64,000 bases of DNA from positions 2,502 through 66,501 of IMG/VR virus record IMGVR_UViG_3300032334_001488; one strand, written 5' to 3'. The notes under the pieces were generated by a model. That model did no database searches, was not told the origin of the DNA, and saw only the letters and a list, made by a program, of their open reading frames with translations. Shown here piece after piece: positions 4,854 to 21,223 of this stretch. The position numbers and the translations under genes were made by a program. The stretch's first letter is position 1; each line of letters opens with the position of its first letter. This stretch comes from a virus.

Positions 4854-4880
4854 TGTTAAGTTGCGTTGGAATAAAGTTGA

Positions 4881-5006: not shown

Positions 5007-5033
5007 GAATTGACTCCGAATGTGTAGTTATGT

Positions 5034-5061
5034 TAAGCAGTTTAACGTCATGCTTAGGACG
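5034..5061 (-). ncRNA. PK1 pseudoknot repeat, copy A
   Basis: Minus strand CGUC-C-UAAGCA-U-GACG-UUAAAC-UGCUUA. Confidence 0.8.
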
Positions 5062-5089
5062 TAGGTTTACTTTAAAATTGATTGTGCTT

Positions 5090-6034
5090 TCATTTCTTTA
5101 AAAACCCTTGAAGTTGTGGTAATGAAGTCAAAGGAAAAGGTACGTAGCCAGCCTCCATCATGTTATCAAACAGGTCCCATGCGTTGTGTTGTGTAAACAA
5201 TGTGCGTGGCTTGTAGGTGCGCCAATGTGTTAAAGGCGCCATAGCTCCAGACTGAGTATGCAATAGAACCATTCTTCCATCACTTACTGAATCTGATGGA
5301 GGAGCATAAGCCCATGCAACACACTTCTCACTGGCACTACCACGTGCGTTATTACGTACGTCACTACGCTTAACAAGTAGTTCACGATACTTATTAAACC
5401 AAGTCAAGTGAATGCACCAGGGTTTGTACCCTTCTATCTCAGCCTGGAAATCAGACAGATTATTTAGTTGTCTAGTGAATGATCCACATGAGCAATATGG
5501 CGCCAACGCTTGTACTCCATTGCCATTAGATTCCTCTCCAAATTCAGACTCCATATCAACAGGTTGTGACTCAGCTCGCCAGCCGTCCGGAGCAATAAGA
5601 TGACCCAGATCTGTTTGGTCAGACTGAAGTAACGCTTCCAAACGCGTTTTGTCTTTGATGTGAATAAACTTGTCAGCCCATAACGCTTGAAGTTTGGCGG
5701 ATGCCGTAAGATGTCCCAGGCTATGGTTATAATTCCAGCCTTTAAAAATGACGTAGGCGTTGTTGTGCCAGATTGATGGGCCACGATAGTTTGCTCCGAG
5801 ATAGGAAAAGAAATCTTTGAGTCTGAATGTGTAGTCAAGATAAGCTTGCTTGATCAATGCGCGATCATAACACTGAGTAGTATTATCAGACCGACGCACA
5901 ACAACATTAGTATCAAGTAAAGAGATGTTGCTAATCCCTGTATCATCAAAGCCAGGGAAAGCGCGAGATATGTTAGTACGAGAATAAATTGAAGACTGAG
6001 CAGTGTTGAGCGTTTTATTTAAAAGTGTAGTCAT
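5090..6034 (-). CDS. SWIM zinc-finger domain protein
   Basis: CSCGSF...PWCIHL fits the SWIM CxC-xn-CxH motif. Confidence 0.65.
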   Translation of the reverse strand: MTTLLNKTLNTAQSSIYSRTNISRAFPGFDDTGISNISLLDTNVVVRRSDNTTQCYDRALIKQAYLDYTFRLKDFFSYLGANYRGPSIWHNNAYVIFKGWNYNHSLGHLTASAKLQALWADKFIHIKDKTRLEALLQSDQTDLGHLIAPDGWRAESQPVDMESEFGEESNGNGVQALAPYCSCGSFTRQLNNLSDFQAEIEGYKPWCIHLTWFNKYRELLVKRSDVRNNARGSASEKCVAWAYAPPSDSVSDGRMVLLHTQSGAMAPLTHWRTYKPRTLFTQHNAWDLFDNMMEAGYVPFPLTSLPQLQGFLKK

Positions 6035-6099
6035 TGATACAGATTGGGTGGTTGAGTTGAAGTTGACTTAGCTGTAGACTAAACAAAACTCTGACTGAC

Positions 6100-6366
6100 A
6101 TGGAAGAGCTTGAGCATGGTACTTATGTACCACTTGAGAAGTTTGATTTATCTCCCAGTCTTAATGATAAGTTCTGGGAAGAAAACATCAAACGCCTCAT
6201 TCAAAAATCCACATCAGTCAGTGAGTTACGTGAGATTGCAACGTTGTTGGTAACACTTGCAACTACACGTCAAGGTGTAATTCGTGGGCTGGTAAAAGAC
6301 ATGCACTCCTTTAACAATGTTGTTGTAGATAATGCAGCAATTACCAACCCAGAAGTTAAACCCTAA
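6100..6366 (+). CDS. NblA-like protein (phycobilisome degradation), divergent
   Basis: SLNDKF...IKRLIQ...VSELREIA..L..L...RQ..IR.LV helix-loop-helix resembles picocyanobacterial/phage NblA-like proteins; own TAGACT -10. Confidence 0.4.
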   Translation: MEELEHGTYVPLEKFDLSPSLNDKFWEENIKRLIQKSTSVSELREIATLLVTLATTRQGVIRGLVKDMHSFNNVVVDNAAITNPEVKP

Positions 6367-7371
6367 TTAAAACAAGGAGTCATCCTCACCTGTCATAGGA
6401 TCCTGAGCTGATTGAAGTTGCAACACAATGTGATCAGTCCCTCTGGAAGCAGGAAGGATTTCTACACCTGCCTTGATTCCATAAGCACCACCCAACTTGT
6501 CAGCATCTTGCTTGGAATGTTGATTGATGTAATCAGCAAACAGCTCTTGGAATTTCCAAGTTGATTCACGATCTTCATCAGGAATCGACATGCGATTCAA
6601 TGATTCGATAGCGGCTTCTTCTGTGCTGTAATCAGGTAGGTCAAAAGATTCAATTGCGCAAATCTCAACGTTGTTGGCGCCGCGCATGTCGTTGACAAGT
6701 ACCGGAGTAAATACGGTAGTGGCGTAGAACTTTTCATTGAATGCAAGAGGAACTTCAGCGGCCAGTGCTTTACTAAGGCACTTGGACATTTCTTTTTCAT
6801 ACAACTTGATCTTCTCAGCTGCATCAGTACCGTTCAATCCTTTCAGTGTTAGCACCATAGGAATTTTGTGGGCACGCACATTATCCTTGGTAAGAATGTA
6901 CACAAGGTACTTGGTGCGCACACTGAACTTGCGCTTGTACATCTCACCTTTGCTGTTGGCAAGATCAGAGGCAGTCTTGTCAGCATCCCACAGATCTTTA
7001 ACATCGGGATTATCAAATGTACCGATAGTCATACGCATCCCAGTAGTTTCCTCAACCATGAGGGGAGAACGTAAAAGCACTTGAATTCGAGGCTCAGTAA
7101 AATTGAGTCCTTCTTCAATTGAAGTGTTGGGAGCCATACCAAAAGTTTGCTTGTAGTTCCAGATAACTGAACCTTTAGCAAATTGATCTTCAGTGGCACT
7201 CCATCCGCAAGTGTCAAGGTCTGACTTCCGCACGAACCAACCTCGTGTCTTGGACTTGTTGAGAGGCTGGATAGTGACGAGGTTCTGGTACCCCGAAACA
7301 AATTCTTTAGACTGAAAAAGCTGAAACGATTTGATTCCACGGGTTGCAATAGCAGCGGTTTTCGTAGTCAT
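6367..7371 (-). CDS. Conserved cyanobacterial/cyanophage protein (DUF5895-like), possible ssDNA-annealing function
   Basis: Adjacent to SSB; acidic aromatic C-terminus (EDDSLF); family recalled from memory only. Confidence 0.4.
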   Translation of the reverse strand: MTTKTAAIATRGIKSFQLFQSKEFVSGYQNLVTIQPLNKSKTRGWFVRKSDLDTCGWSATEDQFAKGSVIWNYKQTFGMAPNTSIEEGLNFTEPRIQVLLRSPLMVEETTGMRMTIGTFDNPDVKDLWDADKTASDLANSKGEMYKRKFSVRTKYLVYILTKDNVRAHKIPMVLTLKGLNGTDAAEKIKLYEKEMSKCLSKALAAEVPLAFNEKFYATTVFTPVLVNDMRGANNVEICAIESFDLPDYSTEEAAIESLNRMSIPDEDRESTWKFQELFADYINQHSKQDADKLGGAYGIKAGVEILPASRGTDHIVLQLQSAQDPMTGEDDSLF

Positions 7372-7395
7372 GTCAAGGTCGGTTGGGTTTGTTGG

Positions 7396-7423
7396 TGAGC
7401 AGTTTTACGTCATACTCAGGACG
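7396..7423 (-). ncRNA. PK1 pseudoknot repeat, copy B
   Basis: CGUC-C-UGAGUA-U-GACG-UAAAAC-UGCUCA. Confidence 0.8.
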
Positions 7424-7438
7424 GATTTTTAAAACTGA

Positions 7439-8248
7439 TTAGAAAGGTTCGTCACTAAGCTCCGGTGCAGTGCCATATTGACCAGGTAATTCTGGCAGAC
7501 CGCCGCCAGATGTCACGTTCCAAGGGTCAGAACCTTCATCGGCTGTGCGTCCACCCCACAAGGTTGTCACTCCTTCTGGCGAAGCTACTGTCGTCTGTGG
7601 CTTGATTTCCTGAGCACCTGTCTGCCCTTTGGGAGCCAGGGTCATGCTTACTAATTGAATCTTGGTAAGGCTGCGACGTTCTTTTGTTTCTTTATCTAGC
7701 CAAGCATCAGTAACAAGGCGGCCTTGAATAGTAAGACCAGTGCCTTTACGCGTGAAGTTAACAAGAAGTTCCGCTTGCTTAAGCTTGTCTTCTGCATTGT
7801 TGATTGCATAAAAGTTAAACAGATCAGACTGATTGCGTCCAGTGTTAACTGCTAATGTCTGGTTGCAGATCATGGTACCATCAGCCGTTGTCTTAAAGGC
7901 ACGTGCATCTTGATGGTCAATGTCTTTAACACAACGACCACTAAGGATTACTGTGTTGAAGATAGGGAACTGATCATTAACTTGAGCAATGATTCCTCCA
8001 TGGAGAGAATAAGTTTTAGCCTCCAGATCGAACCGCAGTTTTGCACCATGGATGTAGATTTGAGCTCCTTGAGAAGTACGAGAAAAACGCTCAGCATTTT
8101 TTCCGTACACATTGAGTTCAATTGCAGTAGGTGCTTTGTTTCCAATGGGCGGCAGCAACACCATACAACGTGCTGCTGTGGATGTAGCGCTGGTGTAAAC
8201 TTCTCGTGGCGCTTCAGTAGTCTGAGCGCAAAGTGTAACAAAGTTCAT
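7439..8248 (-). CDS. ssb: Single-stranded DNA-binding protein with two tandem OB folds
   Basis: The second half, NTVILSGR...TLAVN...KGTGLTIQGRL.TD.W.DKET.E.RS, is a classic SSB OB fold. The first half is a degenerate OB fold. Acidic tail SDEPF. Confidence 0.85.
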   Translation of the reverse strand: MNFVTLCAQTTEAPREVYTSATSTAARCMVLLPPIGNKAPTAIELNVYGKNAERFSRTSQGAQIYIHGAKLRFDLEAKTYSLHGGIIAQVNDQFPIFNTVILSGRCVKDIDHQDARAFKTTADGTMICNQTLAVNTGRNQSDLFNFYAINNAEDKLKQAELLVNFTRKGTGLTIQGRLVTDAWLDKETKERRSLTKIQLVSMTLAPKGQTGAQEIKPQTTVASPEGVTTLWGGRTADEGSDPWNVTSGGGLPELPGQYGTAPELSDEPF

Positions 8249-8268
8249 GAAATCAAAAGTGTAGTTGA

Positions 8269-8295
8269 AAGCAGTTTAACGTCTTACTTGGGACG
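8269..8295 (-). ncRNA. PK1 pseudoknot repeat, copy C
   Basis: CGUC-CC-AAGUA-A-GACG-UUAAAC-UGCUU. Confidence 0.75.
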
Positions 8296-8300
8296 GGGCA

Positions 8301-10166
8301 TTAGTGGGTCTGATCCCAGGACCAGCCTACTTTACAGTCGCCTTCAATCTCACAACGGAATGTAAAGAATTGTTGCGCTTGCGGGAAGGCAAGCAAGGCC
8401 TGTTCTCTAACAATTGCAGTGTTTGTCTTAGGACAAGACAACTGAATCTCATCATGAATCATGGCATGTTGAATCCAATCTTTACCATGCACTAAGCCTT
8501 TAGCTTCAAGATTGGTATGTGTATTAATTACAACTTGCTTCATAAGCATGGCACCTGCCCCTTGAAGCAACACATTCAATGCACTAAAGTCTGACCGACA
8601 AAACAATGCACGTCCATCTAATCCACGTAGGTACCCACGTTGTTGTACAGCGCTTGCTAACTTTTGTTTTAATTTTTTAAGCGCTGGCACACCATCCATA
8701 AAACCATTGATTGCATTACGTCCCAATTGTTTTAAACGCACAGGATCTTTTTCGCTTGGATCTACAATGCCACCAGCTTTTTCATTACCACAGCCATAGA
8801 GCATTGCATATATTAAACGCTTGGCAATGTCTCTAGTAGGCACACCAAACTTATCTTGGTTGTACACATGAATGTCAACTGATTCATCTGTCACAAGGTT
8901 GGCATATTCACCGTCATCCCATAGGGCAAGATACCCACCAAGACAACGCAACTCCAATGCTTTGGCATCTACACCTAACAAATCCCAGTCATCTGGCGCA
9001 TGAAATAAACTCCTGCATTCTTTACCGTACGGGCTATAAGATGCTGGCACTTGCCCCATGTTTGGATTACGATGTGCGCAACGTCCGGTAATACAACCAT
9101 TAGTTACAACTTCACCATGCATACATGAGTCTTGATTGTTTACATATTTAAGCCAAGCTTTGTCTCCATCAGCAATTTGCCCTAGTCTTTTCTTAATAGT
9201 TAAGTATTCACCCAACACCTTGGCCTCAGGATAATCCAATGCACTTAACACTTCATCGTCAAGGATTGGATTACCTTTATCCGTCAGCTCCTCTGGTACC
9301 CACCCATATTTACTTTTAAGCCTGTTAACAATTTGAGGGCGGGAACCAGGATTAAATTTCTGATATGTCACTTTAGTAAATGGCTCACCTTTAATGTAAC
9401 CACGAGTCTTGTTGTTTACCTTTGGTACAAATATTGACTCTTGTTTAATGGGCGGAAATACTTCCATTACTTTTGCATGGAGTTCATCTTTCTTTGCTCT
9501 GAGTACATCCACCAGATCAAGACATACATCCACATCAAAAGGAAAACCTGCTCGCACTTGTTTATTAATTGCAAGAGCAAAGTCATGCTCCAACTTAAGC
9601 GCCGCTTCCGCATAATTTTGTTTCTGAATGAATTGGAATAATTCAAAAGTAACTTTAACATCTTGCTCGCAGTACGCCAGCATTTCCTCGGAGTACGCAC
9701 TAAAATCTTTGAACTCAATCTTGTAATTGGAAAGGCGGTAACCCCACGCTTTAAGGCCGGCCCTACCCTTGAGGTTCTTTGGTACGTCCGGATATTGTTC
9801 TGTGTCAAGGTCATAGAGAACTTCTTTTGGCCAAATGAGTTGTGTACAAATGAGTGTGTCAATAATTCTTCCCCGAAACTTTGCGGTATCGGGGAAAAGT
9901 TTTTGAAGAACTGGGATGTCATAGAACAGAATATTCTGCCCTATAAGGACATCACTGCTAGCAAGATGATTAATAGCAGCCAGAATAGAATCGGGTCCAT
10001 AGTGATGTACTTGTTTTGTTTGAATATTGTATATGACAATGCAATGGATAACCGTTACATTGTCATACAATCCATCTGACTCTAAATCAAATACCAGCCA
10101 AGTCTCATTTTCTAAAACGGGACTCATCTTGAATTGAGAGGTCTTGACTGGCGAGAGCGGGATCAT
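8301..10166 (-). CDS. DNA polymerase family A (T7 gp5-like) with 3'-5' exonuclease
   Basis: ExoI FDLESDG, ExoIII YCEQD, motif A DAKALELR, motif B RDIAKRLIYAMLYG (Tyr at the 762-equivalent), motif C HDEIQ. Confidence 0.97.
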   Translation of the reverse strand: MIPLSPVKTSQFKMSPVLENETWLVFDLESDGLYDNVTVIHCIVIYNIQTKQVHHYGPDSILAAINHLASSDVLIGQNILFYDIPVLQKLFPDTAKFRGRIIDTLICTQLIWPKEVLYDLDTEQYPDVPKNLKGRAGLKAWGYRLSNYKIEFKDFSAYSEEMLAYCEQDVKVTFELFQFIQKQNYAEAALKLEHDFALAINKQVRAGFPFDVDVCLDLVDVLRAKKDELHAKVMEVFPPIKQESIFVPKVNNKTRGYIKGEPFTKVTYQKFNPGSRPQIVNRLKSKYGWVPEELTDKGNPILDDEVLSALDYPEAKVLGEYLTIKKRLGQIADGDKAWLKYVNNQDSCMHGEVVTNGCITGRCAHRNPNMGQVPASYSPYGKECRSLFHAPDDWDLLGVDAKALELRCLGGYLALWDDGEYANLVTDESVDIHVYNQDKFGVPTRDIAKRLIYAMLYGCGNEKAGGIVDPSEKDPVRLKQLGRNAINGFMDGVPALKKLKQKLASAVQQRGYLRGLDGRALFCRSDFSALNVLLQGAGAMLMKQVVINTHTNLEAKGLVHGKDWIQHAMIHDEIQLSCPKTNTAIVREQALLAFPQAQQFFTFRCEIEGDCKVGWSWDQTH

Positions 10167-10338
10167 TCTTATTAATCCAAGTTAAGATTTGTTGCGCACC
10201 TGCGCGATGCGGGTGGGAAAAAATCTTGTTCAAAGCTACATCAGAGTCTAACGGAACCAGCTTGAAAGAGTTGCTTTGAGTACAAGCAGTAATGGCGGAT
10301 GGTTGATCCGTGTTCATTGAAACAATGACGTAGCTCAT
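10105..10338 (-). CDS. Hypothetical protein
   Basis: ORF between the GP88-like gene and the polymerase. Confidence 0.55.
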   Translation of the reverse strand: MSYVIVSMNTDQPSAITACTQSNSFKLVPLDSDVALNKIFSHPHRAGAQQILTWINKNDPALASQDLSIQDESRFRK

Positions 10339-10380
10339 GGATGTAAAAGAAGTCGGGCTAATGTTAACACGCCTGCAATT

Positions 10381-11190
10381 TCACGCACGAACTTTTTTGG
10401 TCTTGTTGTACCCAGTAAACTTACCCTGTTTGCGCCGAGCATTGATAGCAGCTTGCGCATCTGAACCAGCACGTTGTGGACTATGGACCAACAATGCAAA
10501 GGGCTTGTCACCAAAGCAGTGACTGTCATCATGGTCAATCTCAAGCCCTAGTTCTGCTGCTTCTTCTTCTGTGTACACAACATAAGCAACACGCTTAAAC
10601 ACATTGGGATTGCGTAAAATCATACGGTCAAGCATGCCGCCGATTGATGCAGTCAACATAAAGTTTGCTGGTATCTTTTCGTGTATAGCTAGCCAATCAT
10701 TAAGCATCTTGGTGTACGCATAGAACTTAATAGCAGGATACCTGGTAGCAACACGTGCCCATGCTTCCATGTAAGCACGTGCCCAGAAGTCACCACTCTC
10801 ATGGATGCGACAAATCTCAAGTGCTGGTTGTACTAGTAGTGACAACTCAATCAGTCCTGCAATCAACTCAACCTGCTGTTCATAACTCTTGCCTTGTAAC
10901 TCCCTGTAACTACCGTGGTCACCGCCATACATTGTCTCACGTAACAGATCCCAGTTGTGCCAGCGTGCATCACGTACGTTTGGAAACATGGCTTCTGACA
11001 TGGCAGCAAAACATCTGTAGTCTTGCGTCAGATCAATAGGTTGTTGCGGTAGATCCATCAACCTACCTGTGGTGCGATCAGCCATTGCTTTACATACTCC
11101 TGCATTAGGGCATGTGTAACCTGCTGGCAAGCTAAAGATCAAACGCTTACCAAGCTTGGCGTTGCCTGTGGAAAATTTAAGAAGTTGCAT
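10381..11190 (-). CDS. GP88-like protein (Cys-rich, radical-SAM-like fold suspected)
   Basis: GNAKLG...FSLPAG.TCP.A..C...CFA...RIHESGDF...FYAYTK. Confidence 0.7.
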   Translation of the reverse strand: MQLLKFSTGNAKLGKRLIFSLPAGYTCPNAGVCKAMADRTTGRLMDLPQQPIDLTQDYRCFAAMSEAMFPNVRDARWHNWDLLRETMYGGDHGSYRELQGKSYEQQVELIAGLIELSLLVQPALEICRIHESGDFWARAYMEAWARVATRYPAIKFYAYTKMLNDWLAIHEKIPANFMLTASIGGMLDRMILRNPNVFKRVAYVVYTEEEAAELGLEIDHDDSHCFGDKPFALLVHSPQRAGSDAQAAINARRKQGKFTGYNKTKKVRA

Positions 11191-11224
11191 GGTGTTGAAT
11201 GAAATGAATGATAATAAAAACTAA

Positions 11225-11252
11225 TGAGCAGTTTAACGTCATGCTTAGGACG
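11225..11252 (-). ncRNA. PK1 pseudoknot repeat, copy D
   Basis: CGUC-CUA-AGCA-U-GACG-UUAAAC-UGCU. Confidence 0.75.
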
Positions 11253-11257
11253 TACAG

Positions 11258-11563
11258 CTAATCTACGTTAATAAGTTCAACGGATTCTCTGAATTGTTCA
11301 CGGCTTAGCCGTGCAAGAATAGCACCTCCTGTAGCTGGTACCTGGGTAGGACCATCATGAATTAAGATTTCCCATACCATGTCATCGGTATCCATCCAAT
11401 TCTTACCAGCTTTAACTGCAAGTTTGATTGCATGCTCAGTTGATTTCCTTGGAAGTTCAACACGAATAATCATAAATGGATCATCTTCATTGTCTTGAGT
11501 GAATGCAGCTAACCAAAACTTTTTAGTTTTGATTGCTGGTGGCGCAGCAAATCCTTTAGTCAT
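11258..11563 (-). CDS. Hypothetical protein
   Basis: MTKGF start, coupled to the thyX stop. Confidence 0.6.
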   Translation of the reverse strand: MTKGFAAPPAIKTKKFWLAAFTQDNEDDPFMIIRVELPRKSTEHAIKLAVKAGKNWMDTDDMVWEILIHDGPTQVPATGGAILARLSREQFRESVELINVD

Positions 11564-12186
11564 TTAAATGCAGCCTCACCAATAACAGGGAATTGTTCAA
11601 TGAAGATTTGTTTGCAGCCTTCTGCAATCAACCGATGCTCTAGCTGTGTTTCTTTTGATGCACGTACATTGATATAGTGAATCCACGACCGGATCGAGCC
11701 GTTCATATACAAAGTAGTTTGTGTACTAAGTGGAAGAATGCGACGTGCACATTCTTTAGCTACACCATCTGCAATCATTTGCATATAAAGCTCTTCAATG
11801 TCCGCATACTGATTACGAATCTGTTCATCATAATATTCTTGTATATTAAAATCCAAATCATTTGTACTGTTTTGCCTATTCTTTAGATCCTGCCTACGCA
11901 GATTTGGAATAGCAAATGGCTGCGCTTTTGCATACCTGGTACTAAACTCTTGAAAACTAAATGAACGATGGCGTAAGATCTGTGCGGAAATGTCACGTTC
12001 TGTGTGTATTTGCACACAAAGATTGGCCATTTCAAATATAGAAAAATGTTTATGATCTAAACAATACTTAAGAAGTTTGGGCCCTGTTTCCCAATTATCC
12101 TGATTAGAAGGATTGGAAACCCGAGCCATTTTGACAACTAGTTTTTCAGCTTCTGGTGTAGCCCAGACAAATTCAACGTTACTCAT
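11560..12186 (-). CDS. thyX: FAD-dependent thymidylate synthase ThyX
   Basis: RHRSFSFQEFSTRY signature; ARVS, H.SIFE, E.AR.ILP, GSIRSWIHY, TQ.EHR. Confidence 0.97.
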   Translation of the reverse strand: MSNVEFVWATPEAEKLVVKMARVSNPSNQDNWETGPKLLKYCLDHKHFSIFEMANLCVQIHTERDISAQILRHRSFSFQEFSTRYAKAQPFAIPNLRRQDLKNRQNSTNDLDFNIQEYYDEQIRNQYADIEELYMQMIADGVAKECARRILPLSTQTTLYMNGSIRSWIHYINVRASKETQLEHRLIAEGCKQIFIEQFPVIGEAAFK

Positions 12187-12805: not shown

Positions 12806-12836
12806 GATTTAATAGTTGTGTGTTTATGTAATTAAA

Positions 12837-13378: not shown

Positions 13379-13707
13379 TTAATGTTCTTGTAAGTTTTGT
13401 AGTTGACAATTTTGCAGATAGTACTGCGGTGCATCTTAAGCCTTAAAGCAATCTGTCCATTGCTATAACCTTGTTGATGCAGATGCCTAACCGTTTGCAC
13501 TTGAATTGAATTTAGTTTTGCATTTGGATTTTTATCTCCACGCAAAACATGTGGATCAATTGGAATTGGTTTGGCAACTGCATAGCGTTCAATGGTTCGG
13601 TACTTGGTACCACAATCAAGACACCTACAGAATCGTTTGGTTAACTCATCTGTGTGTTCTGTGCAGGTAACACGGGTGTTGACACTGGCGCATGCGCGAC
13701 ACTTCAT
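13375..13707 (-). CDS. NrdR-like Zn ribbon fused to HTH
   Basis: MKCRAC...TRV...RFCRCLDCG.KYRTIE followed by G..NPNAKL...IA..L...RSTI..I. Confidence 0.7.
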   Translation of the reverse strand: MKCRACASVNTRVTCTEHTDELTKRFCRCLDCGTKYRTIERYAVAKPIPIDPHVLRGDKNPNAKLNSIQVQTVRHLHQQGYSNGQIALRLKMHRSTICKIVNYKTYKNIK

Positions 13708-14042
13708 TCCATTGCCTCCTCTGACTCAAGGTCAACATCAACATCATCTTTGGATACAATCAAGTCAAGGTAATAACACGTTTGTGTAGTACCAAGAATT
13801 TGAAATGCATCCAAGATTAAAGTAAGATGACGTTCGGTTGAGTCATAGTATTCAGTAAGAAACTTTTCAGCTTGATCATAATCATCACGTGTGCCAGTCA
13901 GCTTTTGCATAATGTCTGCTGGCATCTCATCAATAATTTTTTCGATTAAATACTCACGCACTGCAGGCCATGCGTGATGGATTGTAATCACATCAACAAT
14001 TTGATTGGCAAGATCAACGTCAACAGAATTGAGTTTAGGCAT
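13704..14042 (-). CDS. Hypothetical protein
   Basis: Coupled ORF with an acidic C-terminus. Confidence 0.6.
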   Translation of the reverse strand: MPKLNSVDVDLANQIVDVITIHHAWPAVREYLIEKIIDEMPADIMQKLTGTRDDYDQAEKFLTEYYDSTERHLTLILDAFQILGTTQTCYYLDLIVSKDDVDVDLESEEAME

Positions 14043-14056
14043 GGTTGTGTTGATAG

Positions 14057-14080
14057 AAAAAACCCCCGCTTGCGCAGGGG
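14057..14080 (-). terminator. Intrinsic terminator
   Basis: Minus strand CCCCUGC-GCAA-GCGGGGG-UUUUUU. Confidence 0.7.
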
Positions 14081-14100
14081 CCGAACATTCCGTAGCCAGC

Positions 14101-14463
14101 TTACACGGCTTGAGCTTCTGTGTCTAGTGTCGGCGCAGCAACCCCAGCTTTTGTTAACTTATCTAACATCTGGCACATGACAGTTGCATGCTGGTGCGTC
14201 TGCTCCATGAAGTGAGCAGCACGCTCTGCACTGATGCGATGCACGGTACCACTGGGATCCCTGTATGCCCAGCTTCCATCAGGCTGTGGATCCCCCTGGA
14301 GAGCAAGACGTTCTGAATTGTGTACATACCTAAGCTCAAGGTTATGAAAATCCTTGAGTCCATCAGATGATGTCCAGGTAGCACCAAGGTTGTAACGCTG
14401 CTCTTCATCACTGAATGCATGGACTTCAGGGATAAGATGCTGGAAACAAGCAAAGATGTTCAT
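14101..14463 (-). CDS. Hypothetical protein
   Basis: Protein-like ORF. Confidence 0.6.
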   Translation of the reverse strand: MNIFACFQHLIPEVHAFSDEEQRYNLGATWTSSDGLKDFHNLELRYVHNSERLALQGDPQPDGSWAYRDPSGTVHRISAERAAHFMEQTHQHATVMCQMLDKLTKAGVAAPTLDTEAQAV

Positions 14464-14484
14464 GAGTTGAATGTAAAGATGTTG

Positions 14485-14709
14485 TTAGCTTGGACTTACA
14501 TCAATAGATGTTGAACGCCAAGTGTGATCATGAGGCAAAGGCTCGGTACCGTAATCCCATGTATCAAAGTCATCCTCATTGCGAGGATCATTGTTCTCAA
14601 ACAATATGTATTGAGGTTGACCATGTTCTGTGATGTACGCACCAAGGTTTTGCAATGCTTGTTGAAGCAGTGCTTCTTCTTCTGGTGTTATGTCACGATG
14701 TTCAGTCAT
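14485..14709 (-). CDS. Hypothetical acidic protein
   Basis: Ends with a WDYGTEPLP motif. Confidence 0.55.
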   Translation of the reverse strand: MTEHRDITPEEEALLQQALQNLGAYITEHGQPQYILFENNDPRNEDDFDTWDYGTEPLPHDHTWRSTSIDVSPS

Positions 14710-14767
14710 GGTAAAGGGCTGGGCTTACATAGGTTGATCCTAATGCCAGCGGCTGTGGGGGCCGACC

Positions 14768-16501
14768 CTATGCTACAGCATTACGTAACGCCAGTGCTTG
14801 CTTGAATACTTTTGCGTAGTCTGATTCTTCTTGACTTGTCAATGCCTTATTGCTAATACCTTTGATTTGTTTAACGGCTAACATGCCTTGATTAAGTGAT
14901 AGTTGAATTGTAAACAAAGGCTTGCCTTCAATCATACATAGTACAATAAACTCTTTACGTTTCTTAACAGCTTCTGCATATTGGTTGTGACTACCAACGC
15001 AATTACGTACGGCTTGACCCCAGCTTGCAAGCTGATGGGTATCTGATGGCTGAAAGAATGTCCACTTTTGATCAAGGTATTCAACCTTGATTGGAGTAGG
15101 AAATAAATCCTGGGGCAAATCTACTTTATTATTTTTAACCTTCCATGATTCAGCTTGCACATAATCATGGAACTCAGTAAGACGCCAACGCTTAGGTGGA
15201 TCAATAGTTTTATTTGCATTAAAGATAGTACTAAGCATTCCAAATGTATCTGCTAATTGATAACACAAGAGTGTATCTTTTTCGCCATACCTATGACCAA
15301 TATGTGGCTCATAGTTTTCTTTGTAATACTTATCAAGAATTAAAACAATTGAAGATACTGGCATGTGTTTTCTTAACCAATTACGTACAGGTATATAAGA
15401 TTGATTATCTATGACATAAGTCATTCTCCAATTGCTGTAATCTAAACAACTTAATGCTTCTTTATATGTTTGATAATAATCAATAGGTGTATTAGGCCAA
15501 ACACTATGCAACCATTTAATGCCATACATATAATGAATAAATTTATTCATTGGATCTAAAGCTTTTGTGAATTTAGTAGTGGTTGGATCTTGAAATATTT
15601 GTATTACTTTATTGCATACAGCTTGCAATTCCTTTTGAATAAAAGGCTTGCTTAAGATATCAGCCGGAACACCAAGCCTGCGTTGAATATGTGGAGTTAG
15701 ATTTGCTGCAGTAGGTAACCAGTTAGGATCTAATACAATTTCTGTAAGACTTGGAAAATAAGCCACATAAACTCCAAACAAATAATGTAAATTGTTTCTT
15801 CTTTTGTCAACACGAGCAAACAAATTTGATTGATCTTTCCAAACAGGAATAGATTTTGAAAGTTGTTTATAAAAAGGATTGATGCAATTATCTTTTATGT
15901 ACTTACCTTTTTCTGTCCATGCTGGCACACTTAAAGGATTCCAATGATAAAGATTAACACAACGCGCTGTATCTAATGTTATTTTCTTTGTGTAAATATG
16001 ATACTCAACGCGTCCATATTTCTTTAACGTCATATCATCTAAACTAAAATCTAAATCTTGATCACCAAATCTAAAACCATCTAGCCCTTTGCGAGTAGCT
16101 TTAGTTGTAGAAATTGCATAACTAAAACCATACAAGTAACTTTCATCTGCATTAGGCAGCCATGCCGCAATCCATGTTGATTCATAGTAATAAAGAATTG
16201 CTTTTACTTCATTGCATGTATGCTGTGCAACTCCATTAATTATTTCTAAAACTTGTTTATAAAACACCCAATATTTACGTGGTGCAGTTTGTGAATTAAT
16301 ATGATCAACAGCTTGTTGCATTTCTGCCGCAGGAACAATATCAACAGGAATCAAATCATTAATATTACCAATAGGATATTTAGATTTCTTTTTAGTTGTT
16401 GCAGGTCCTTCTTCAATAGCTTTTTCTTTAGCTAATGCTTTCAATGCTGGATCATAAGCCAGCAGTTCATGATGCAGTTTTTCTGGGAGACGGAATTCCA
16501 T
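14768..16501 (-). CDS. PcfJ-like domain protein
   Basis: C-terminal EFHD...P.DT.QL..WG.AVRNCVG...Y...I.L.....P.FTI.L...VKQIKG..N. Confidence 0.75.
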   Translation of the reverse strand: MEFRLPEKLHHELLAYDPALKALAKEKAIEEGPATTKKKSKYPIGNINDLIPVDIVPAAEMQQAVDHINSQTAPRKYWVFYKQVLEIINGVAQHTCNEVKAILYYYESTWIAAWLPNADESYLYGFSYAISTTKATRKGLDGFRFGDQDLDFSLDDMTLKKYGRVEYHIYTKKITLDTARCVNLYHWNPLSVPAWTEKGKYIKDNCINPFYKQLSKSIPVWKDQSNLFARVDKRRNNLHYLFGVYVAYFPSLTEIVLDPNWLPTAANLTPHIQRRLGVPADILSKPFIQKELQAVCNKVIQIFQDPTTTKFTKALDPMNKFIHYMYGIKWLHSVWPNTPIDYYQTYKEALSCLDYSNWRMTYVIDNQSYIPVRNWLRKHMPVSSIVLILDKYYKENYEPHIGHRYGEKDTLLCYQLADTFGMLSTIFNANKTIDPPKRWRLTEFHDYVQAESWKVKNNKVDLPQDLFPTPIKVEYLDQKWTFFQPSDTHQLASWGQAVRNCVGSHNQYAEAVKKRKEFIVLCMIEGKPLFTIQLSLNQGMLAVKQIKGISNKALTSQEESDYAKVFKQALALRNAVA

Positions 16502-16526
16502 TTGTGTGTGATGTGGTTATGTGTGT

Positions 16527-16556
16527 TGAGCCAGTTTAATGTCTTAGCTCAGGACA
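16527..16556 (-). ncRNA. PK1 pseudoknot repeat, copy E
   Basis: UGUC-C-UGAGCUA-A-GACA-UUAAAC-UGGCUCA; both stems show compensatory changes. Confidence 0.8.
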
Positions 16557-16565
16557 ATCAAATAA

Positions 16566-16964
16566 TTATTTTTTATCGATCAATGCTTTGATTAAAGCAT
16601 TGACAACTTCAAGAGCCAATGCAGGATCTACATTTACTTCAACCTCTTCATCCTCATCTTCATCTTCATCAATGTAGTCATCTACCAGTTCATCATCTTC
16701 TGTTGATGGTTCCATGCCATACAACTCAGTAAGCATCTCGGCTACACGAATACGAACACGTGAGCTGGTTGGATAGTTAAGATCTTCCAGTTCATCTAGC
16801 ATATTTACATAAGCCCAGCGAAGAACGCTGCTAACAACTTTATGCTCAGCGTGTTTTTCCATGACATATACACTACCGCCTACTGCAACAGCATCGGTAT
16901 GTGCATCTTGGAACCAGGAGTTAATGACTTCAGTAGAAGGGAAAGACATTGAAATAAACCTCAA
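16566..16964 (-). CDS. Hypothetical acidic protein (start 16964 TTG or 16949 ATG)
   Basis: D/E-rich tract. Confidence 0.6.
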   Translation of the reverse strand: MRFISMSFPSTEVINSWFQDAHTDAVAVGGSVYVMEKHAEHKVVSSVLRWAYVNMLDELEDLNYPTSSRVRIRVAEMLTELYGMEPSTEDDELVDDYIDEDEDEDEEVEVNVDPALALEVVNALIKALIDKK

Positions 16965-16980
16965 GTAATGTGTGTGTTGT

Positions 16981-17010
16981 TGAGTCAGTTTAACGTCATG
17001 ACTCAGGACG
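16981..17010 (-). ncRNA. PK1 pseudoknot repeat, copy F
   Basis: CGUC-C-UGAGUCA-U-GACG-UUAAAC-UGACUCA. Confidence 0.8.
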
Positions 17011-17015
17011 CATGA

Positions 17016-17267
17016 TTAGCTTACCTGAACCCAGTTCAGATTGCAATCATTAATGTACGCAAGCAGCTCATCATCTCCAGCAGGGAGATCAGCTTCGTCA
17101 TCTGTAAGTAAAGAAGCCTTGCATAATGCAGGACAGTACTCAGCAGGGTCGTACATAGTCTGCTGATAAAGCAGCTGCATGTCATCAACCATTGCAAAGA
17201 TTGTGTATCCATCATGATCAGTTTGTACCTTGACAATCTCAAGTACATCCATCAGTAGATACCCCAC
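17016..17267 (-). CDS. Hypothetical protein
   Basis: QT.YDPAEY.PALC motif. Confidence 0.6.
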   Translation of the reverse strand: MGYLLMDVLEIVKVQTDHDGYTIFAMVDDMQLLYQQTMYDPAEYCPALCKASLLTDDEADLPAGDDELLAYINDCNLNWVQVS

Positions 17268-17470
17268 AGTGTGTTGGCAACTTTGCGTGTACCCTCATAG
17301 CCACCCTTGGCATTCATTGCCCGTGCATATGCACACTTAGCAGGACCTGGGTGCAGATAGTACAACTTAATCCAAGTCTGTAGTTCATCCTGCCACAGAC
17401 GCATGTATTCATCTTGAATCTTTGTAGTCTCAAGCCAAGCAGTCATAAGAGTTGCAGTGTGAATTGACAT
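17252..17470 (-). CDS. Hypothetical protein
   Basis: ATG 19 nt downstream of PK1 copy G. Confidence 0.55.
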   Translation of the reverse strand: MSIHTATLMTAWLETTKIQDEYMRLWQDELQTWIKLYYLHPGPAKCAYARAMNAKGGYEGTRKVANTLWGIY

Positions 17471-17489
17471 GTGAGTTGAGTAAGTGGAC

Positions 17490-17515
17490 AGCAGTTTAAC
17501 GTCATGCTTAGGACG
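17490..17515 (-). ncRNA. PK1 pseudoknot repeat, copy G
   Basis: CGUC-CUA-AGCA-U-GACG-UUAAAC-UGCU. Confidence 0.75.
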
Positions 17516-17597
17516 TGCAACTATTTTAAAGTTGCGACAATAGCACCAACTAAATAACCAAAAACAAAACTAGCAAGCATAAGTCCACTTGTCATAA

Positions 17598-17810
17598 CTA
17601 AAACAATTGAATGTTACGTTTTGATAAGCCTGTACCTGGTAGAGATACAGATGCCCGGACTCCTGAGTCGCGGGCATTAAGTGTTACTTGGAATGGTCCA
17701 AGTTTAATTGACTTACTAAATGATTTAATACCACGTTCAGTAATATTAAATCCAGCAATTGTTTTATCAAAGTTAATTGGTGATTTCTTAGTCATCGTTC
17801 CAAGTGTCAT
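17598..17810 (-). CDS. DUF4236-like small protein
   Basis: F.KSIKLGPF...LN...G...SVSLPGTGLS. Confidence 0.6.
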   Translation of the reverse strand: MTLGTMTKKSPINFDKTIAGFNITERGIKSFSKSIKLGPFQVTLNARDSGVRASVSLPGTGLSKRNIQLF

Positions 17811-18105
17811 ACTCTGCCACTACAAAACTTAACGTAAAACTTTCAAGTTCTTCATGAGTAGAATACCTAGCAACAAATCCACCTGACCCTGCAAATCCAC
17901 TTTTAATTGAACTAATCAATAATTGAGTAGCACTTTGTTTTAGTCTTGCAATAGTAGGTACGGCCATTAATTGATTTGTAATTGCATCTAATGATGTAAT
18001 CCATTTCCAATCAAGAGAAGTCATTGCAATGTGAACTTTTTCAAATTCAAACTCTTCAATAACATCATTGATTAAACTTAGTTGATGCTCAGTTGGTTTA
18101 GTCAT
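17788..18105 (-). CDS. Hypothetical phage protein
   Basis: FEFEKVH.AM..LDW.W...P....LK..A..LL motif. Confidence 0.6.
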   Translation of the reverse strand: MTKPTEHQLSLINDVIEEFEFEKVHIAMTSLDWKWITSLDAITNQLMAVPTIARLKQSATQLLISSIKSGFAGSGGFVARYSTHEELESFTLSFVVAEYDTWNDD

Positions 18106-18311
18106 TTCAAATGCTCCGGCATGAGTAACTTTTGGTCATCATCATCCATGTTGGACACAATAAACTTTTGTCCATCGGGGGCGACAAAGCCCCCGATGAA
18201 TCCAACACCTAATCGATCAGCAGATTCTTTCATCTTGGCAATGAACTGCATTGCTTCGAGTCGTTGCCGATCAATTGAATCAGGAATCTTTGGTAACTCA
18301 GGTCCAGTCAT
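18102..18311 (-). CDS. Hypothetical protein
   Basis: Coupled ORF. Confidence 0.55.
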   Translation of the reverse strand: MTGPELPKIPDSIDRQRLEAMQFIAKMKESADRLGVGFIGGFVAPDGQKFIVSNMDDDDQKLLMPEHLK

Positions 18312-18369
18312 GTGTTGATTTGTAATGTGTGTGTTGAAGCTATCGACACTGTCAATGGTAGCACAGCAG

Positions 18370-18485
18370 CAGGGAGCAGCCCCACCGGAGCGACCGGCAG
18401 GGCTGTTCTGTTACCCACTGTAGGAAACCTTAAAAACTACAGTGCCCTGAAATATGGAGCTGACAAGGTTCTTCTTCGCTCCATA
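18370..18485 (-). ncRNA. Candidate multi-stem structured RNA with kissing loops
   Basis: Two perfect 8-bp stems plus a GC-rich stem in a 180-nt intergenic gap; loops GAACCUU and AAGGUUU are complementary. Confidence 0.55.
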
Positions 18486-18491
18486 CATATA

Positions 18492-18836
18492 TTAGCTATG
18501 CATTGCTTGATGTTGTTGCCATGCAGCAGTATGCATTTCATCTAATGTGATAGGTGGTTCGCCAAAGCTATCACCTGGATCGCCAAAGTATAACAACACA
18601 TGATTTAATGCTTCAATTGCATCATGCAAATAATCTCGTTGTATATCCGCTAAGTTAGGTTCTTTAATCATATCTTCTAGAACATTTGTTATTAACTGAA
18701 GCTTAACCTCGGCGTCAGCTTGCACAACACGTTTGGTACCATCACGATTGATGATAACCTTTGGAACAAAATAGAGTTGATGCATGGTGTCCTCAGTAAT
18801 GAATGTGTACGCGAGCAATGCCATCCACTGGAACAC
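18492..18836 (-). CDS. Hypothetical protein (start probably later, MHQLY)
   Basis: Ends GEPPIT.DE.H.AAW. Confidence 0.55.
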   Translation of the reverse strand: MFQWMALLAYTFITEDTMHQLYFVPKVIINRDGTKRVVQADAEVKLQLITNVLEDMIKEPNLADIQRDYLHDAIEALNHVLLYFGDPGDSFGEPPITLDEMHTAAWQQHQAMHS

Positions 18837-19119
18837 CCAGTATCTTGGCAGCTCGATAGCTTAGGTCAATGCTGTCACACTCACATCGATCTGTGATTGG
18901 AACAACCAATGTCCTACCTCTGTACTGCACCTCGACTTGTGTGCCGCATGGCAACCAAGGATGTGCAGCACTGACTTTGTTATCACGGTATGTTCCACCG
19001 CAATAGTCTGGTCTACCGTCATACCACTGGTGATAGACAGTGGCAATCACTGGTCTTGCCTGTGCTGGTAAGCAGTTCAGTACTGCAAGTGTAATGAGGA
19101 ATAGTCTTGAAGTAATCAT
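18793..19119 (-). CDS. RlpA-like double-psi beta-barrel (lytic transglycosylase-like) with signal peptide
   Basis: ATVY..WY.G....G..Y.....SAAHPWLPCGT.V.V......VV.ITDR.....IDLS..AA..LG. Confidence 0.85.
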   Translation of the reverse strand: MITSRLFLITLAVLNCLPAQARPVIATVYHQWYDGRPDYCGGTYRDNKVSAAHPWLPCGTQVEVQYRGRTLVVPITDRCECDSIDLSYRAAKILGVPVDGIARVHIHY

Positions 19120-19140
19120 GTGTTAAAGCAATGGGATAGT

Positions 19141-19190
19141 CCTATAAAGATCAAAGGATTCCCTGGTAGATCTTTACGGGGGTGTGGGGG
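19141..19190 (-). repeat. CCCCACACCCC/UACCAGGGA hairpin element, copy 1
   Basis: CCCCCACACCCCC-GUAAAGAUC-UACCAGGGAAUCCUUU-GAUCUUUAU. Confidence 0.5.
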
Positions 19191-19254
19191 GTTGGTCAGT
19201 AGTTATCCGACAGGACCCCAGTGATAGACTGATTAAAACATTAGACATACGTAT

Positions 19255-19830
19255 ATGCCTAACCCATCTTTCTTTGATGCAATGGAAGCCAATGGCGGCA
19301 TGCGCTTTGGTCCACCCAGTTTACCAGATGCCCCAGGCATGTCGCCACAGCAGTACGTACAAAACTTAAGACTTAAAGCAGGCTATAACAATACCTGGGG
19401 CACAAACATCGGAGCTGAATACGAACCAAACACAGGTACTTTTAAAGGTAATGTAGACATTCCACTTGGCTCCCATGCTACTGGCTGGAAAGCAGGAGTA
19501 AGTGCATATGCTCGCCCTAGTTTTATGGGTGGCCCTACTGATACTGGAGCTATGTTTACTTTAGGAAAGAAAACATTAGAGCAAGTTGATACTGCAGATG
19601 TATTGAATAGGGTAAGCCCTAGTCTCAGAACCTTGTTAGAAAATAATCCTGCTGCCGCAGAAGAATTGCGCATGCAAGAGTTTAATCGTCGAAATAATTT
19701 TAATCAACCTGGTACAGATAAGTTTAAATTTTATGGAGGCTTTGATACTAATACTCCAGGTGGCCCACCTAATCCCCAACAATTCCTTCGTCAAAATATT
19801 CAACAAGGATTAGGTGCACCTAACGAATAA
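19255..19830 (+). CDS. Hypothetical G/P/Q-rich protein with a central beta-strand-rich segment
   Basis: Sole long plus-strand ORF inside the early arm; protein-like composition. Confidence 0.7.
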   Translation: MPNPSFFDAMEANGGMRFGPPSLPDAPGMSPQQYVQNLRLKAGYNNTWGTNIGAEYEPNTGTFKGNVDIPLGSHATGWKAGVSAYARPSFMGGPTDTGAMFTLGKKTLEQVDTADVLNRVSPSLRTLLENNPAAAEELRMQEFNRRNNFNQPGTDKFKFYGGFDTNTPGGPPNPQQFLRQNIQQGLGAPNE

Positions 19831-19833
19831 AAA

Positions 19834-20028
19834 TTACGTGTGCTCACCCATGTCAGCACGGTATGCTTCATCGTATAACCAACCAGTACATCGGTTGGTA
19901 CCAAACTCCTGCACCATGCGTCTCCGTATGACTTCTAGCATGGCGCCATAGTCTAACCAATCCATTTGTGGTGCAAGCCCACGACTGATTAGTTCACATT
20001 CCATGTCACGCCACAATGGTGCAGTCAT
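19834..20028 (-). CDS. Hypothetical protein
   Basis: GAGG RBS; PLWR.M...WL..EA.RA pattern. Confidence 0.6.
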   Translation of the reverse strand: MTAPLWRDMECELISRGLAPQMDWLDYGAMLEVIRRRMVQEFGTNRCTGWLYDEAYRADMGEHT

Positions 20029-20039
20029 TGGTTAATACC

Positions 20040-20393
20040 TCAAACTAAACTGAGAAGCCTAAGCCAGGAGTCTGGGTGATCGTGTTCGACTTCGTCACCC
20101 GCCGGGGTCGGGCAGCACGAGTCGAAGGTCCACTCTTCGATGTCTTCAAGGTCTGGGACATCGTACCATCCTGCAAGTTCGTCGTGTTCTTCAGAGGTGT
20201 AGTTGGCTCCTTGTGGAGCCCAGAAGCAACGCAAGATTCCTTGTTTGTTGCGGTAGACATCTCCGTTGTACGGAACTGCTGGAGCACCTGGGTAGGTGAC
20301 TTCGACTGGATACTGTTCACTCCCTTCCTCTTCGGTAAGGGGTTCGTAGCTAAGGGCTTGGGCAATGAGCTGTTGTTCCGGCGTAAGAGCCAT
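20040..20393 (-). CDS. Hypothetical acidic protein
   Basis: GGAG RBS before MALTPEQQ; ends C.TP.GD.VE.DHPDSWL.LL.LV. Confidence 0.65.
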   Translation of the reverse strand: MALTPEQQLIAQALSYEPLTEEEGSEQYPVEVTYPGAPAVPYNGDVYRNKQGILRCFWAPQGANYTSEEHDELAGWYDVPDLEDIEEWTFDSCCPTPAGDEVEHDHPDSWLRLLSLV

Positions 20394-20503
20394 GATGCAA
20401 TCTCCGTAATGAGTTGGATGAATAGAATGCTGAGGCAGTAAATGACACCGATACACACAGTGAGTGTATCGTATGTGTCAATGGACTTTGCTTTGGTTGT
20501 CAT
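20045..20503 (-). CDS. Hypothetical protein with an N-terminal TM helix, overlapping the previous gene
   Basis: GGAGG RBS before MTTKAKS; hydrophobic segment; low-complexity tail. Confidence 0.45.
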   Translation of the reverse strand: MTTKAKSIDTYDTLTVCIGVIYCLSILFIQLITEIASWLLRRNNSSLPKPLATNPLPKRKGVNSIQSKSPTQVLQQFRTTEMSTATNKESCVASGLHKEPTTPLKNTTNLQDGTMSQTLKTSKSGPSTRAARPRRVTKSNTITQTPGLGFSV

Positions 20504-20691
20504 GAACAATCCTCCAATTGTGTTGTGTTGATTTGCTGACATTCCGATAGTTGATCTTGTGTCCAAGCCATTGGCATGTCGTCTTCATCTAGTTCTTCTT
20601 GCATGGCCATACGTTGGTAGTACGCCATGTCTGCTAGTACTTCCCAATGATCAGACCATTCCTGATCAAAAGTTTCCACTGGTTGATGCAC
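20500..20691 (-). CDS. Hypothetical acidic protein (GTG start)
   Basis: GGAGG RBS then GTG at 20691; the ORF-track start lies inside PK1 copy H. Confidence 0.55.
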   Translation of the reverse strand: MHQPVETFDQEWSDHWEVLADMAYYQRMAMQEELDEDDMPMAWTQDQLSECQQINTTQLEDCS

Positions 20692-20717
20692 TGAGTTACC
20701 TCCGAATGAATGTGGGT

Positions 20718-20747
20718 TGAGCCAGTTTAACGTCATAGCTCAGGACG
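20718..20747 (-). ncRNA. PK1 pseudoknot repeat, copy H
   Basis: CGUC-C-UGAGCUA-U-GACG-UUAAAC-UGGCUCA. Confidence 0.8.
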
Positions 20748-20748
20748 T

Positions 20749-20807: not shown

Positions 20808-20817
20808 TCAGTTTCTG

Positions 20818-21183: not shown

Positions 21184-21223
21184 GCTAGTACTGCATCGGT
21201 GTGGGTGATTAGTTCTTGTGTAA

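Follow-up and report, generated by a model that had tools for sequence, protein, structure and literature searches.

What is a short, conserved sequence doing eight times over, always on the same strand, in the gaps between the early and replication genes of a freshwater cyanophage? The question is raised by a 64-kb window (the whole stretch of DNA analysed here, 64,000 nucleotides (nt), bases 2502-66501 of the 66.5-kb IMG/VR virus record IMGVR_UViG_3300032334_001488, whose completeness is estimated at 84%). Synechococcus phage S-EIV1 is the sole megablast match of the window among deposited phages, and the gene order of the two agrees (single-stranded DNA-binding protein, SSB; family A DNA polymerase, PolA; and others), identifying the source as an S-EIV1-like cyanophage. 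The repeated element is a compact 27-30 nt H-type RNA pseudoknot in the minus-strand sense transcript, with covariation in both of its stems. Its core matches that of coremin, an exoribonuclease-resistant RNA of eukaryotic viruses, and we regard the chances as about even that the phage element, too, is a protein-free barrier to 5'-3' RNA decay, for example by RNase J.

All eight copies named in the original prediction are present on the minus strand, within 1-2 nt of the places given there, and the anatomy it proposed is correct: a first stem (S1) of 4 base pairs (bp), a single C as first loop (L1), a second stem (S2) of 6-7 bp, one nucleotide as second loop (L2), and a third loop (L3) of UWAAAC. 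Each copy reads this way, with S2 weaker in three of them (5 bp at 8269, one mismatch at 11225 and 4 bp at 17489). The 12-mer GACRTWAAACTG has 8 exact occurrences in the window; with up to one mismatch allowed it has 9 matches against 1.41 expected, a count that none of 100 shuffles reached. A covariance model, R1, run over the full 64 kb on both strands with filters off, returns exactly the eight copies at 27-49.5 bits, and its next-best match scores 11.1 bits. A loose structural descriptor was also tried as a detector and gave 23 matches in the window against about 20.6 in simulated sequence; being useless for this purpose, it was replaced by the covariance model.

Relatives of the phage carry the evidence for the fold. 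At 12 loci with PolA 69-89% identical, the motif stands at the same intergenic places with its stem sequences changed, for example to GGAC/GUCC in S1 and UGGACA/UGUCCA in S2. A pattern scan of IMG/VR with S1 and L3 fixed and S2 left free found at least 117 stretches; among the pattern matches listed, S2 is complementary with at most one mismatch in 120 of 140, though nothing in the pattern constrained it. R1 was built from relatives (alignment A2) and encodes the pairs of S2 only, not those of S1; the 128 copies from 30 sources that it returned make up alignment A3. Because A2 had been selected for pairing, it served only for building R1 and was kept out of the pair statistics, which come from A3 and the pattern matches. 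An earlier MAFFT alignment (A1) was gapless, so that five copies with a 7-bp S2 were misaligned; it was excluded from the counts, and A2 and A3 were used.

Across the 128 copies of A3, to which the counts below refer unless stated otherwise, 95.6% of cells hold standard pairs compared with 82.5% in shuffles (none of 500 as high), and sliding the partners by 1-3 columns lowers pairing to 13-40%. S1 is paired at 99.4%, although R1 did not model its pairs, and all four of its pairs show two-sided changes. S2 is paired at 93.1%, with five of six pairs changing on both sides and the sixth an invariant A-U. The outermost pair of S1 is the most variable (CG 86, GC 14, UA 13, AU 8, UG 4, unpaired 3). 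G-U and U-G pairs together number 80 against 11 for A-C and C-A, an excess that places the pairing on the sense strand only and therefore in RNA. Within the window, the covariation claimed for S1 rests on one copy (16527, UGUC/GACA) and the in-step change of S2 length on three; the relatives settle the first at all four pairs and extend the second to covariation at five of six pairs. The structural reading of the original prediction, a compact H-type pseudoknot with covarying stems, is thus fully supported by the covariation and the G-U excess.

Rfam 15 has no match at gathering score anywhere in the window, so this is not a curated family. Over the region 16480-17560, which holds three copies, relaxing the limit to E values of up to 10 gave 16 weak matches, none of which fits a copy; two, to snoRNA models, merely touch or overrun the fifth copy.

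A full-text literature search with the 10-mer GACGUUAAAC pointed to the coremin motif, printed as GUCCGAAGACGUUAAACUAC. The same 10-mer also occurs in polerovirus genome sequences printed in a preprint that is silent on the motif. As described by Dilweg, Gultyaev and Olsthoorn, coremin, or xrRNA-C, is an Xrn1-resistant RNA (xrRNA) of beny- and cucumoviruses that has since been met in many RNA virus families of plants, fungi and insects, in 3' untranslated regions (UTRs) and intergenic regions and sometimes repeated (PMC6546385, PMC10520033, PMC10321173). Its first hairpin (hp1) is a 3-4 bp stem CGUC/GACG in which pairing outweighs sequence and the outermost pair can be lost; the C-G that closes the loop is required and may not be turned into G-C. 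[quoted passage not shown] In the spacer UUAAACUAC, U13U14 are tolerant (UU to AA is allowed) and A16, A17, C18, U19 and A20 are each essential. Resistance requires a second small hairpin (hp2) directly after the spacer, and coremin resists Xrn1 in vitro without protein or cofactor (all PMC6546385, PMC10520033). RNAs of the coremin type halt a 5'-3' exoribonuclease in vitro about one nt short of the stem. In a Watson-Crick variant, xrRNA-WCC, loop and spacer form a canonical pseudoknot whose A7-U19 and G6-C20 pairs are proven by compensatory mutants; a single natural example of this variant is given, and the three-dimensional structure of coremin is described as unsolved (PMC10321173).

The phage core CGUC..GACGUUAAACU is identical to that of coremin, and the phage consensus, CGUC-C-UGRGYA-U-GACG-UUAAAC-UGCYCA, keeps both the stem and GACGUUAAACU: the same 4-bp stem CGUC/GACG leads into the same UUAAACU, around a loop that starts with C and mostly ends in A-U. 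The agreement extends to the pattern of constraint. As in the coremin stem, pairing is kept in the phage copies, the outermost pair varies most, and 126 of 128 close the loop with C-G. As in the coremin spacer, the start of L3 is free to vary (position 1 is U in 116 copies; position 2 is U in 109 and A in 18), AAA is present in 128 of 128 and C in 125, and the following U is invariant. The loop-spacer pairing of coremin (positions 18-20) has its counterpart in S2, which covaries and whose first two pairs correspond to A-U19 and N-N20. The first base of the phage loop (L1) is C in every copy, the A before the last base is invariant, and U stands second with a G after it; the loop ends with U in 98 copies, A in 15 and C in 15, beside the 'not C' rule of coremin. 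Settings, too, are alike, with intergenic or 3' UTR sites that are sometimes repeated or in tandem. On this comparison of sequences, natural phage variation is found where coremin tolerates mutation and is missing where mutation is lethal.

The two elements also differ. The 8-9 nt of the phage loop include 6-7 that form canonical pairs with the 3' flank; at position 20, where coremin has A, 112 copies carry G and at least 8 carry A, in every case paired with a loop base; C18 is unpaired, which sets the phage element apart from xrRNA-WCC; and the element sits in double-stranded DNA (dsDNA) phages and bacteria, hosts without Xrn1. The core being the same in sequence, we infer that the fold is probably shared. 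What appears to be new is that dsDNA phages and bacteria carry a coremin-like pseudoknot, one whose second stem is canonical and extended; xrRNAs as a kind are known. A search of titles and abstracts, with subscription journals mostly outside its coverage, found among the papers listed none linking coremin or xrRNAs to phage or bacterial transcripts.

All eight copies fall within the minus-strand early and replication block of the window (2260..25069). The genes that the original prediction placed downstream of them, ssb, the DUF5895-like, GP88-like and PcfJ-like genes and small open reading frames (ORFs), are the right ones. Copy 1 (5034-5061, CGUC-C-UAAGCA-U-GACG-UUAAAC-UGCUUA, 48.8 bits with R1) has the stop of ORF 5090-6034 28 nt behind it and, 27 nt ahead, the ATG of a 41-amino-acid ORF (4881-5006). 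Copy 2 (7396-7423, S2 UGAGUA/UGCUCA, L3 UAAAAC, 49.5 bits) stands 15 nt past the ssb stop and 24 nt from the ATG of the DUF5895-like gene (6367-7371, identified with Pfam), and copy 3 (8269-8295, S2 AAGUA/UGCUU, 39.8 bits) occupies the gap between PolA (8301-10166), whose stop is 5 nt away, and SSB (7439-8248), whose ATG follows after 20 nt. Copy 4 (11225-11252, 43.3 bits), in which the mismatch in S2 is A-C, is 5 nt past the stop of ORF 11258-11563 and 34 nt from the ATG of the GP88-like gene (10381-11190, Pfam). Copy 5 (16527-16556, 27 bits), which joins S1 UGUC/GACA to a 7-bp S2 UGAGCUA/UGGCUCA, lies between ORF 16566-16964, whose stop is 9 nt upstream, and the PcfJ-like gene (14768-16501, Pfam), whose ATG is 25 nt downstream. 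ORF 16566-16964 is itself preceded by copy 6 (16981-17010, 7-bp S2 UGAGUCA/UGACUCA, 33.2 bits), 5 nt past the stop of ORF 17016-17267 and 31 nt from an ATG at 16949 in the frame of 16566-16964. Copy 7 (17489-17515, S2 of 4-5 bp, 42.8 bits) is 18 nt from the ATG of ORF 17252-17470. Copy 8 (20718-20747, again with the 7-bp S2 UGAGCUA/UGGCUCA, 34 bits) is 26 nt from a GTG that shares the frame of ORF 20500-20736 and has GGAGG in front of it. Absence of a Shine-Dalgarno sequence (SD), which had been claimed for these leaders, holds for five of the eight; the other three bear GGAG or GAGG.

The same arrangement recurs in the relatives. Three complete relatives, one 83%-complete relative and S-EIV1 carry 6-9 copies each on one strand within 17-20 kb (7 in S-EIV1). 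An upstream ORF of at least 50 amino acids was found for 122 of the A3 copies and a downstream ORF for 121. The spacer from stop codon to S1 has a sharp floor, with 29 copies at 5 nt, 10 at 6 and 5 at 7 and a tail reaching 195; it is shorter than 5 nt in 5 of 122 copies, three of them with negative values that are probably wrong ORF calls. On the other side, the gap between S2 and the start codon has a median of 22 nt and falls at 19-22 nt in 64 of 121 copies, and the leader in between contains 5.4% G, compared with 14-17% upstream of window ORFs in general. Window genes that overlap their neighbour have no copy: the pseudoknots stand at gaps only. We infer that the two spacing pile-ups mark minimum distances that would keep the RNA folded beside terminating and initiating ribosomes. 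Sigma-70-like promoters are not enriched in the early block (33 found, 45 expected), and none lies beside a copy.

Elsewhere in the early block lies a Gam-like gene (4152-4853, minus strand). The block has a single strong intrinsic terminator-like site (14061-14082, minus strand), with a U run and a stem of 9 bp that includes 6 G-C pairs; ORFs 14101-14463 and 13704-14042 flank it, and no pseudoknot comes after it. The structural block, on the plus strand from 25178, encodes the terminase, the major head protein and other virion proteins and is without any copy. It includes a 1256-amino-acid ORF (25178-28948, plus) with neither a PHROG nor a Pfam match and a 1273-amino-acid ORF (51427-55248, plus) with no match in a comparison with PHROG only.

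Beyond the S-EIV1-like phages, the pseudoknot appears in other architectures. Four IMG/VR contigs (L052:8072-8107(-), L082:2677-2712(+), L105:9421-9456(-) and L131:1173-1208(-)) share a composite noncoding unit of conserved-loop hairpin, pseudoknot, intrinsic terminator and promoter-like site, suggestive of either a gene for a small RNA or a module of a 3' UTR. In these units the first hairpin has a covarying stem and the loop UUACUUCCUUUC, the terminator is a G-C hairpin with a U run, and the promoter-like site is of the TTGAC type. A GC-richer phage contig (L118:4616-4800) has three tandem pseudoknots with a 75-nt period, the first two directly before a CCCC..GGGG hairpin and a U run; the array recalls tandem xrRNAs or tandem attenuators. 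In two further contigs (L112 and L063) the pseudoknot is in contact with GGAGG. A near-identical copy with S2 UUGAUA/UGUCAG directly follows an intrinsic terminator in L023:5894-5929, in at least 14 further IMG/VR loci and in a Ruminococcus metagenome-assembled genome (MAG; L149); the contigs that share it represent another, apparently gut-associated, phage type.

A scan of prokaryotic genomes, one per species and 596 Gb in all, gave at least 126 matches. Among the matches listed, S2 is complementary in 55 of 126: for an S2 of 6 nt the figure is 50 of 69, for one of 7 nt it is 5 of 57. The non-complementary ones are largely the chance matches to be expected in 596 Gb. The complementary matches listed come from contigs labelled as many phyla, mostly MAGs, and a part of them may therefore be phage sequence that was binned together with host DNA. 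Several anaerobe phyla have MAGs and genomes (L166:1155-1468 and L211:4356-4669; also L151, L155, L157, L160, L180 and L215) in which a tiny ORF of about 16 amino acids with its own SD (e.g. MKRFMIPRIAHCKEGC) is followed after 4-10 nt, or overlapped, by the pseudoknot. The stretch before the pseudoknot had been considered as the C-terminus of a larger protein; alignment shows the tiny ORF and its SD instead. In L166 and L211 two tandem pseudoknots stand ahead of a gene whose product starts MTQCPVCGM, which we take to resemble a metal-binding, YHS-type start. Rfam has no match in eight bacterial loci. The pseudoknot sequence is also found inside a CRISPR (clustered regularly interspaced short palindromic repeats) spacer, in L146:156-3071 (spacer 1793-1816), a Bradymonadales MAG whose array has more than 26 units of a 37-nt repeat, and in L244:4787-5204, whose repeat is similar; hosts thus seem to have sampled a conserved phage element as a target.

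How might such an element work? The reading that we favour, at roughly even probability, is the exonuclease block, one of several options in the original prediction; the near-identity of the core to coremin gives this option independent support by analogy. It is suggested by three things taken together: the likeness to an RNA that blocks a nuclease without a cofactor, the position at the 5' edge of translation units, and the occasional place before terminators. On this model the pseudoknots would occupy the gaps between translation units of long polycistronic early and replication transcripts, with spacing (at least 5 nt after a stop, about 19-22 nt before a start) that would leave them folded during neighbouring termination and initiation. 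Each would act as a protein-independent mechanical barrier to enzymes that thread RNA from 5' to 3'. After an upstream cut, host RNase J, and perhaps 5'-end-dependent RNase E, would halt at S1, and each downstream cistron would keep a protected, structured 5' end followed by a G-poor, unstructured leader free for SD-independent initiation. Where other phages place the pseudoknot before a terminator, the same block would leave a small stable RNA. Cyanobacteria possess both RNase E and RNase J (PMC8682795, PMC12642595), and a flaviviral xrRNA is described as stopping bacterial RNase J1 in vitro, an enzyme that such xrRNAs never meet in nature (PMC5760640).

Several observations weigh against a coremin-like barrier. 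Nested folds of the copies reach only -2.9 to -6.8 kcal/mol with z-scores of -0.2 to -1.4, which is no significant signal, so that the case for the pseudoknot rests on comparison with relatives. At two loop positions the phage element departs from what coremin tolerates: the second base is U where coremin requires G, and the C that ends the loop in 15 of 128 copies is inactive in a coremin hexaloop. The required hp2 is missing as well, no hairpin (a 45-nt fold weaker than -8 kcal/mol counting as none) following in 146 of 173 distinct phage contexts and one following in 27; the 6-7 bp S2 may stand in for it. Frameshifting pseudoknots of similar size, including that of beet western yellows virus (BWYV), are reported to fail to resist Xrn1 (PMC10321173), so compactness alone is insufficient. 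Some bacterial copies overlap the end of the tiny ORF, where ribosomes would unfold them. Finally, the narrow distance of 19-22 nt to the start codon fits a role in translation equally well or better.

Such a role is the strongest of the rivals, unlikely as we judge it to be. The pseudoknot would dock on the 30S subunit, or would insulate a G-poor standby leader, and so allow SD-independent initiation. Besides the spacing, the low G content of the leaders speaks for it, as does the restriction of copies to gaps, with none at overlapping stop and start codons, and SD-like 4-mers precede just one quarter to one third of ORFs. Coremin itself is described as acting mechanically on ribosomes, since it halts ribosomes that scan and gives a 22% stimulation of -1 frameshifting in vitro (PMC10321173). 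Elsewhere the fit is poor: L105, L082, L052 and L131 have the pseudoknot before a terminator with no ORF in the unit, L118 has three units in tandem, and in L112 and L063 the pseudoknot abuts a normal GGAGG. A non-systematic look found no rRNA complementarity of the invariant loops. A role in translation does not exclude a barrier role; the two are compatible with each other.

Less probable still, and in our view doubtful, is an operator for a trans-acting factor, either an RNA-binding protein of the phage or host (SSB, for example, as in the autoregulation of T4 gene 32) or a small ligand, in which case a riboswitch would govern translation or termination in many early units. Invariant loop bases are what one would look for in a binding site, and some contexts resemble expression platforms: the three pseudoknot-and-terminator units of L118, the contact with the SD in L112 and L063, and the tiny conserved ORF with one or two pseudoknots ahead of a putative metal-binding gene in anaerobe MAGs. 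In the window, however, the eight copies precede unrelated genes, and only one of them precedes ssb; the same core is found in contigs of many bacterial phyla and unrelated phages and in eukaryotic RNA viruses, where it acts in vitro without protein or cofactor. These points weaken the SSB-sensed operator proposed earlier. In S-EIV1-like phages the start codon lies too far off to be occluded directly, and no Rfam riboswitch model matches, even at E values of up to 10.

We think it improbable that the element is instead the target of another 5'-3' machine, be it RNA polymerase (put-like antitermination), a helicase, or ribosomes that terminate or re-scan (recoding, reinitiation). About 5 nt is the typical spacing of recoding pseudoknots, and 29 copies pile up at exactly that distance after stop codons; in several phages the pseudoknot stands just before a terminator. 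The frameshifting stimulated by coremin in vitro (PMC10321173) would suit this reading also. Against it, Rho is described as absent from cyanobacteria, and the spacers from stop to S1 tail off smoothly between 5 and 195 nt, in keeping with a minimum distance more than with a fixed register. No slippery site or conserved extension frame came to light, no search aimed at them having been made.

Least credible of all is a DNA promoter for a phage RNA polymerase or sigma factor, possibly an N4-type hairpin promoter. It would suit a conserved motif of some 28 bp that keeps one orientation and stands in front of groups of genes, in a block where the lack of sigma-70-like enrichment leaves transcription starts otherwise unexplained. 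But the two covarying stems and the G-U excess place the pairing on the sense strand only (the N4 promoter hairpin forms on the template strand), copies are also found in bacterial leader regions and ahead of terminators, a promoter would not be expected to respect so sharp a limit of 5 nt after stop codons, and the 84%-complete record has no T7-like RNA polymerase (PF00940) or sigma-70 region 2 (PF04542), the PF00940 blank being weak evidence since its control matched no control genome.

If the barrier reading is right, its consequences reach beyond this lineage. Structured RNAs that stop exonucleases have so far been known from RNA viruses of eukaryotes, and that picture would change with a coremin-like element of which each genome in a widespread freshwater cyanophage lineage has 6-9 copies and which is present in contigs of many bacterial phyla. 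It could then be, though here we are more tentative and would put the chances somewhat below even, the first natural class of exoribonuclease-resistant RNA of prokaryotes, sharing its fold with the coremin of eukaryotic viruses and used by phages and some bacteria against RNase J-type decay, carving stable cistrons and small RNAs out of longer transcripts. Viruses of both domains would owe a minimal nuclease-blocking fold either to its spread or to repeated origins; the RNA biology of phages and bacteria would gain a new, very small stabilising module, and synthetic biology a 28-nt insulator for polycistronic designs. For coremin, with a structure described as unsolved, the phages offer hundreds of natural covarying sequences, and if the fold is indeed common to both, their covariation would also supply its base-pairing scheme. 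S-EIV1 has been cultured, its Synechococcus host is known and it carries seven copies, which makes the idea directly testable.

Among known systems other than coremin, the T2/T4 gene 32 pseudoknot is the one with which the original prediction compared the phage element; it is an autoregulatory operator ahead of the phage SSB gene, where it nucleates cooperative binding of SSB to its own leader. Its geometry is that of the window copies, a one-nucleotide first loop over a second stem of 6-7 bp with an unstructured leader, but the resemblance is in geometry only: there is no likeness of sequence, and the phage element has eight copies per genome before unrelated genes and is found far outside SSB genes, all of which weakens the analogy. 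The luteovirus-type BWYV pseudoknot and the preQ1-I riboswitch resemble the phage element in size and in an A-rich third loop that may occupy the minor groove of a first stem both short and G-C-rich, and one of the coremin papers itself states a resemblance of coremin to frameshifting pseudoknots of the BWYV type (PMC10321173). The phage element differs from the first in lying outside coding sequence, the BWYV pseudoknot moreover not being Xrn1-resistant, and from the second in that Rfam matches it neither to preQ1 nor to any other family. In decay as such, the 5' stabilisers of Bacillus mRNAs likewise protect 5' ends. A functional parallel may lie in chloroplasts, where bound proteins define mRNA 5' ends by blocking RNase J; with these barriers, formed by pentatricopeptide repeat (PPR) proteins, the phage element would share an intercistronic position, decay of the cyanobacterial type, and a protected 5' end ahead of an open ribosome-binding region (PMC3799425). 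From the PPR barriers and the Bacillus stabilisers alike, the proposed phage barrier would differ in consisting of RNA structure alone, with no bound protein or ribosome.

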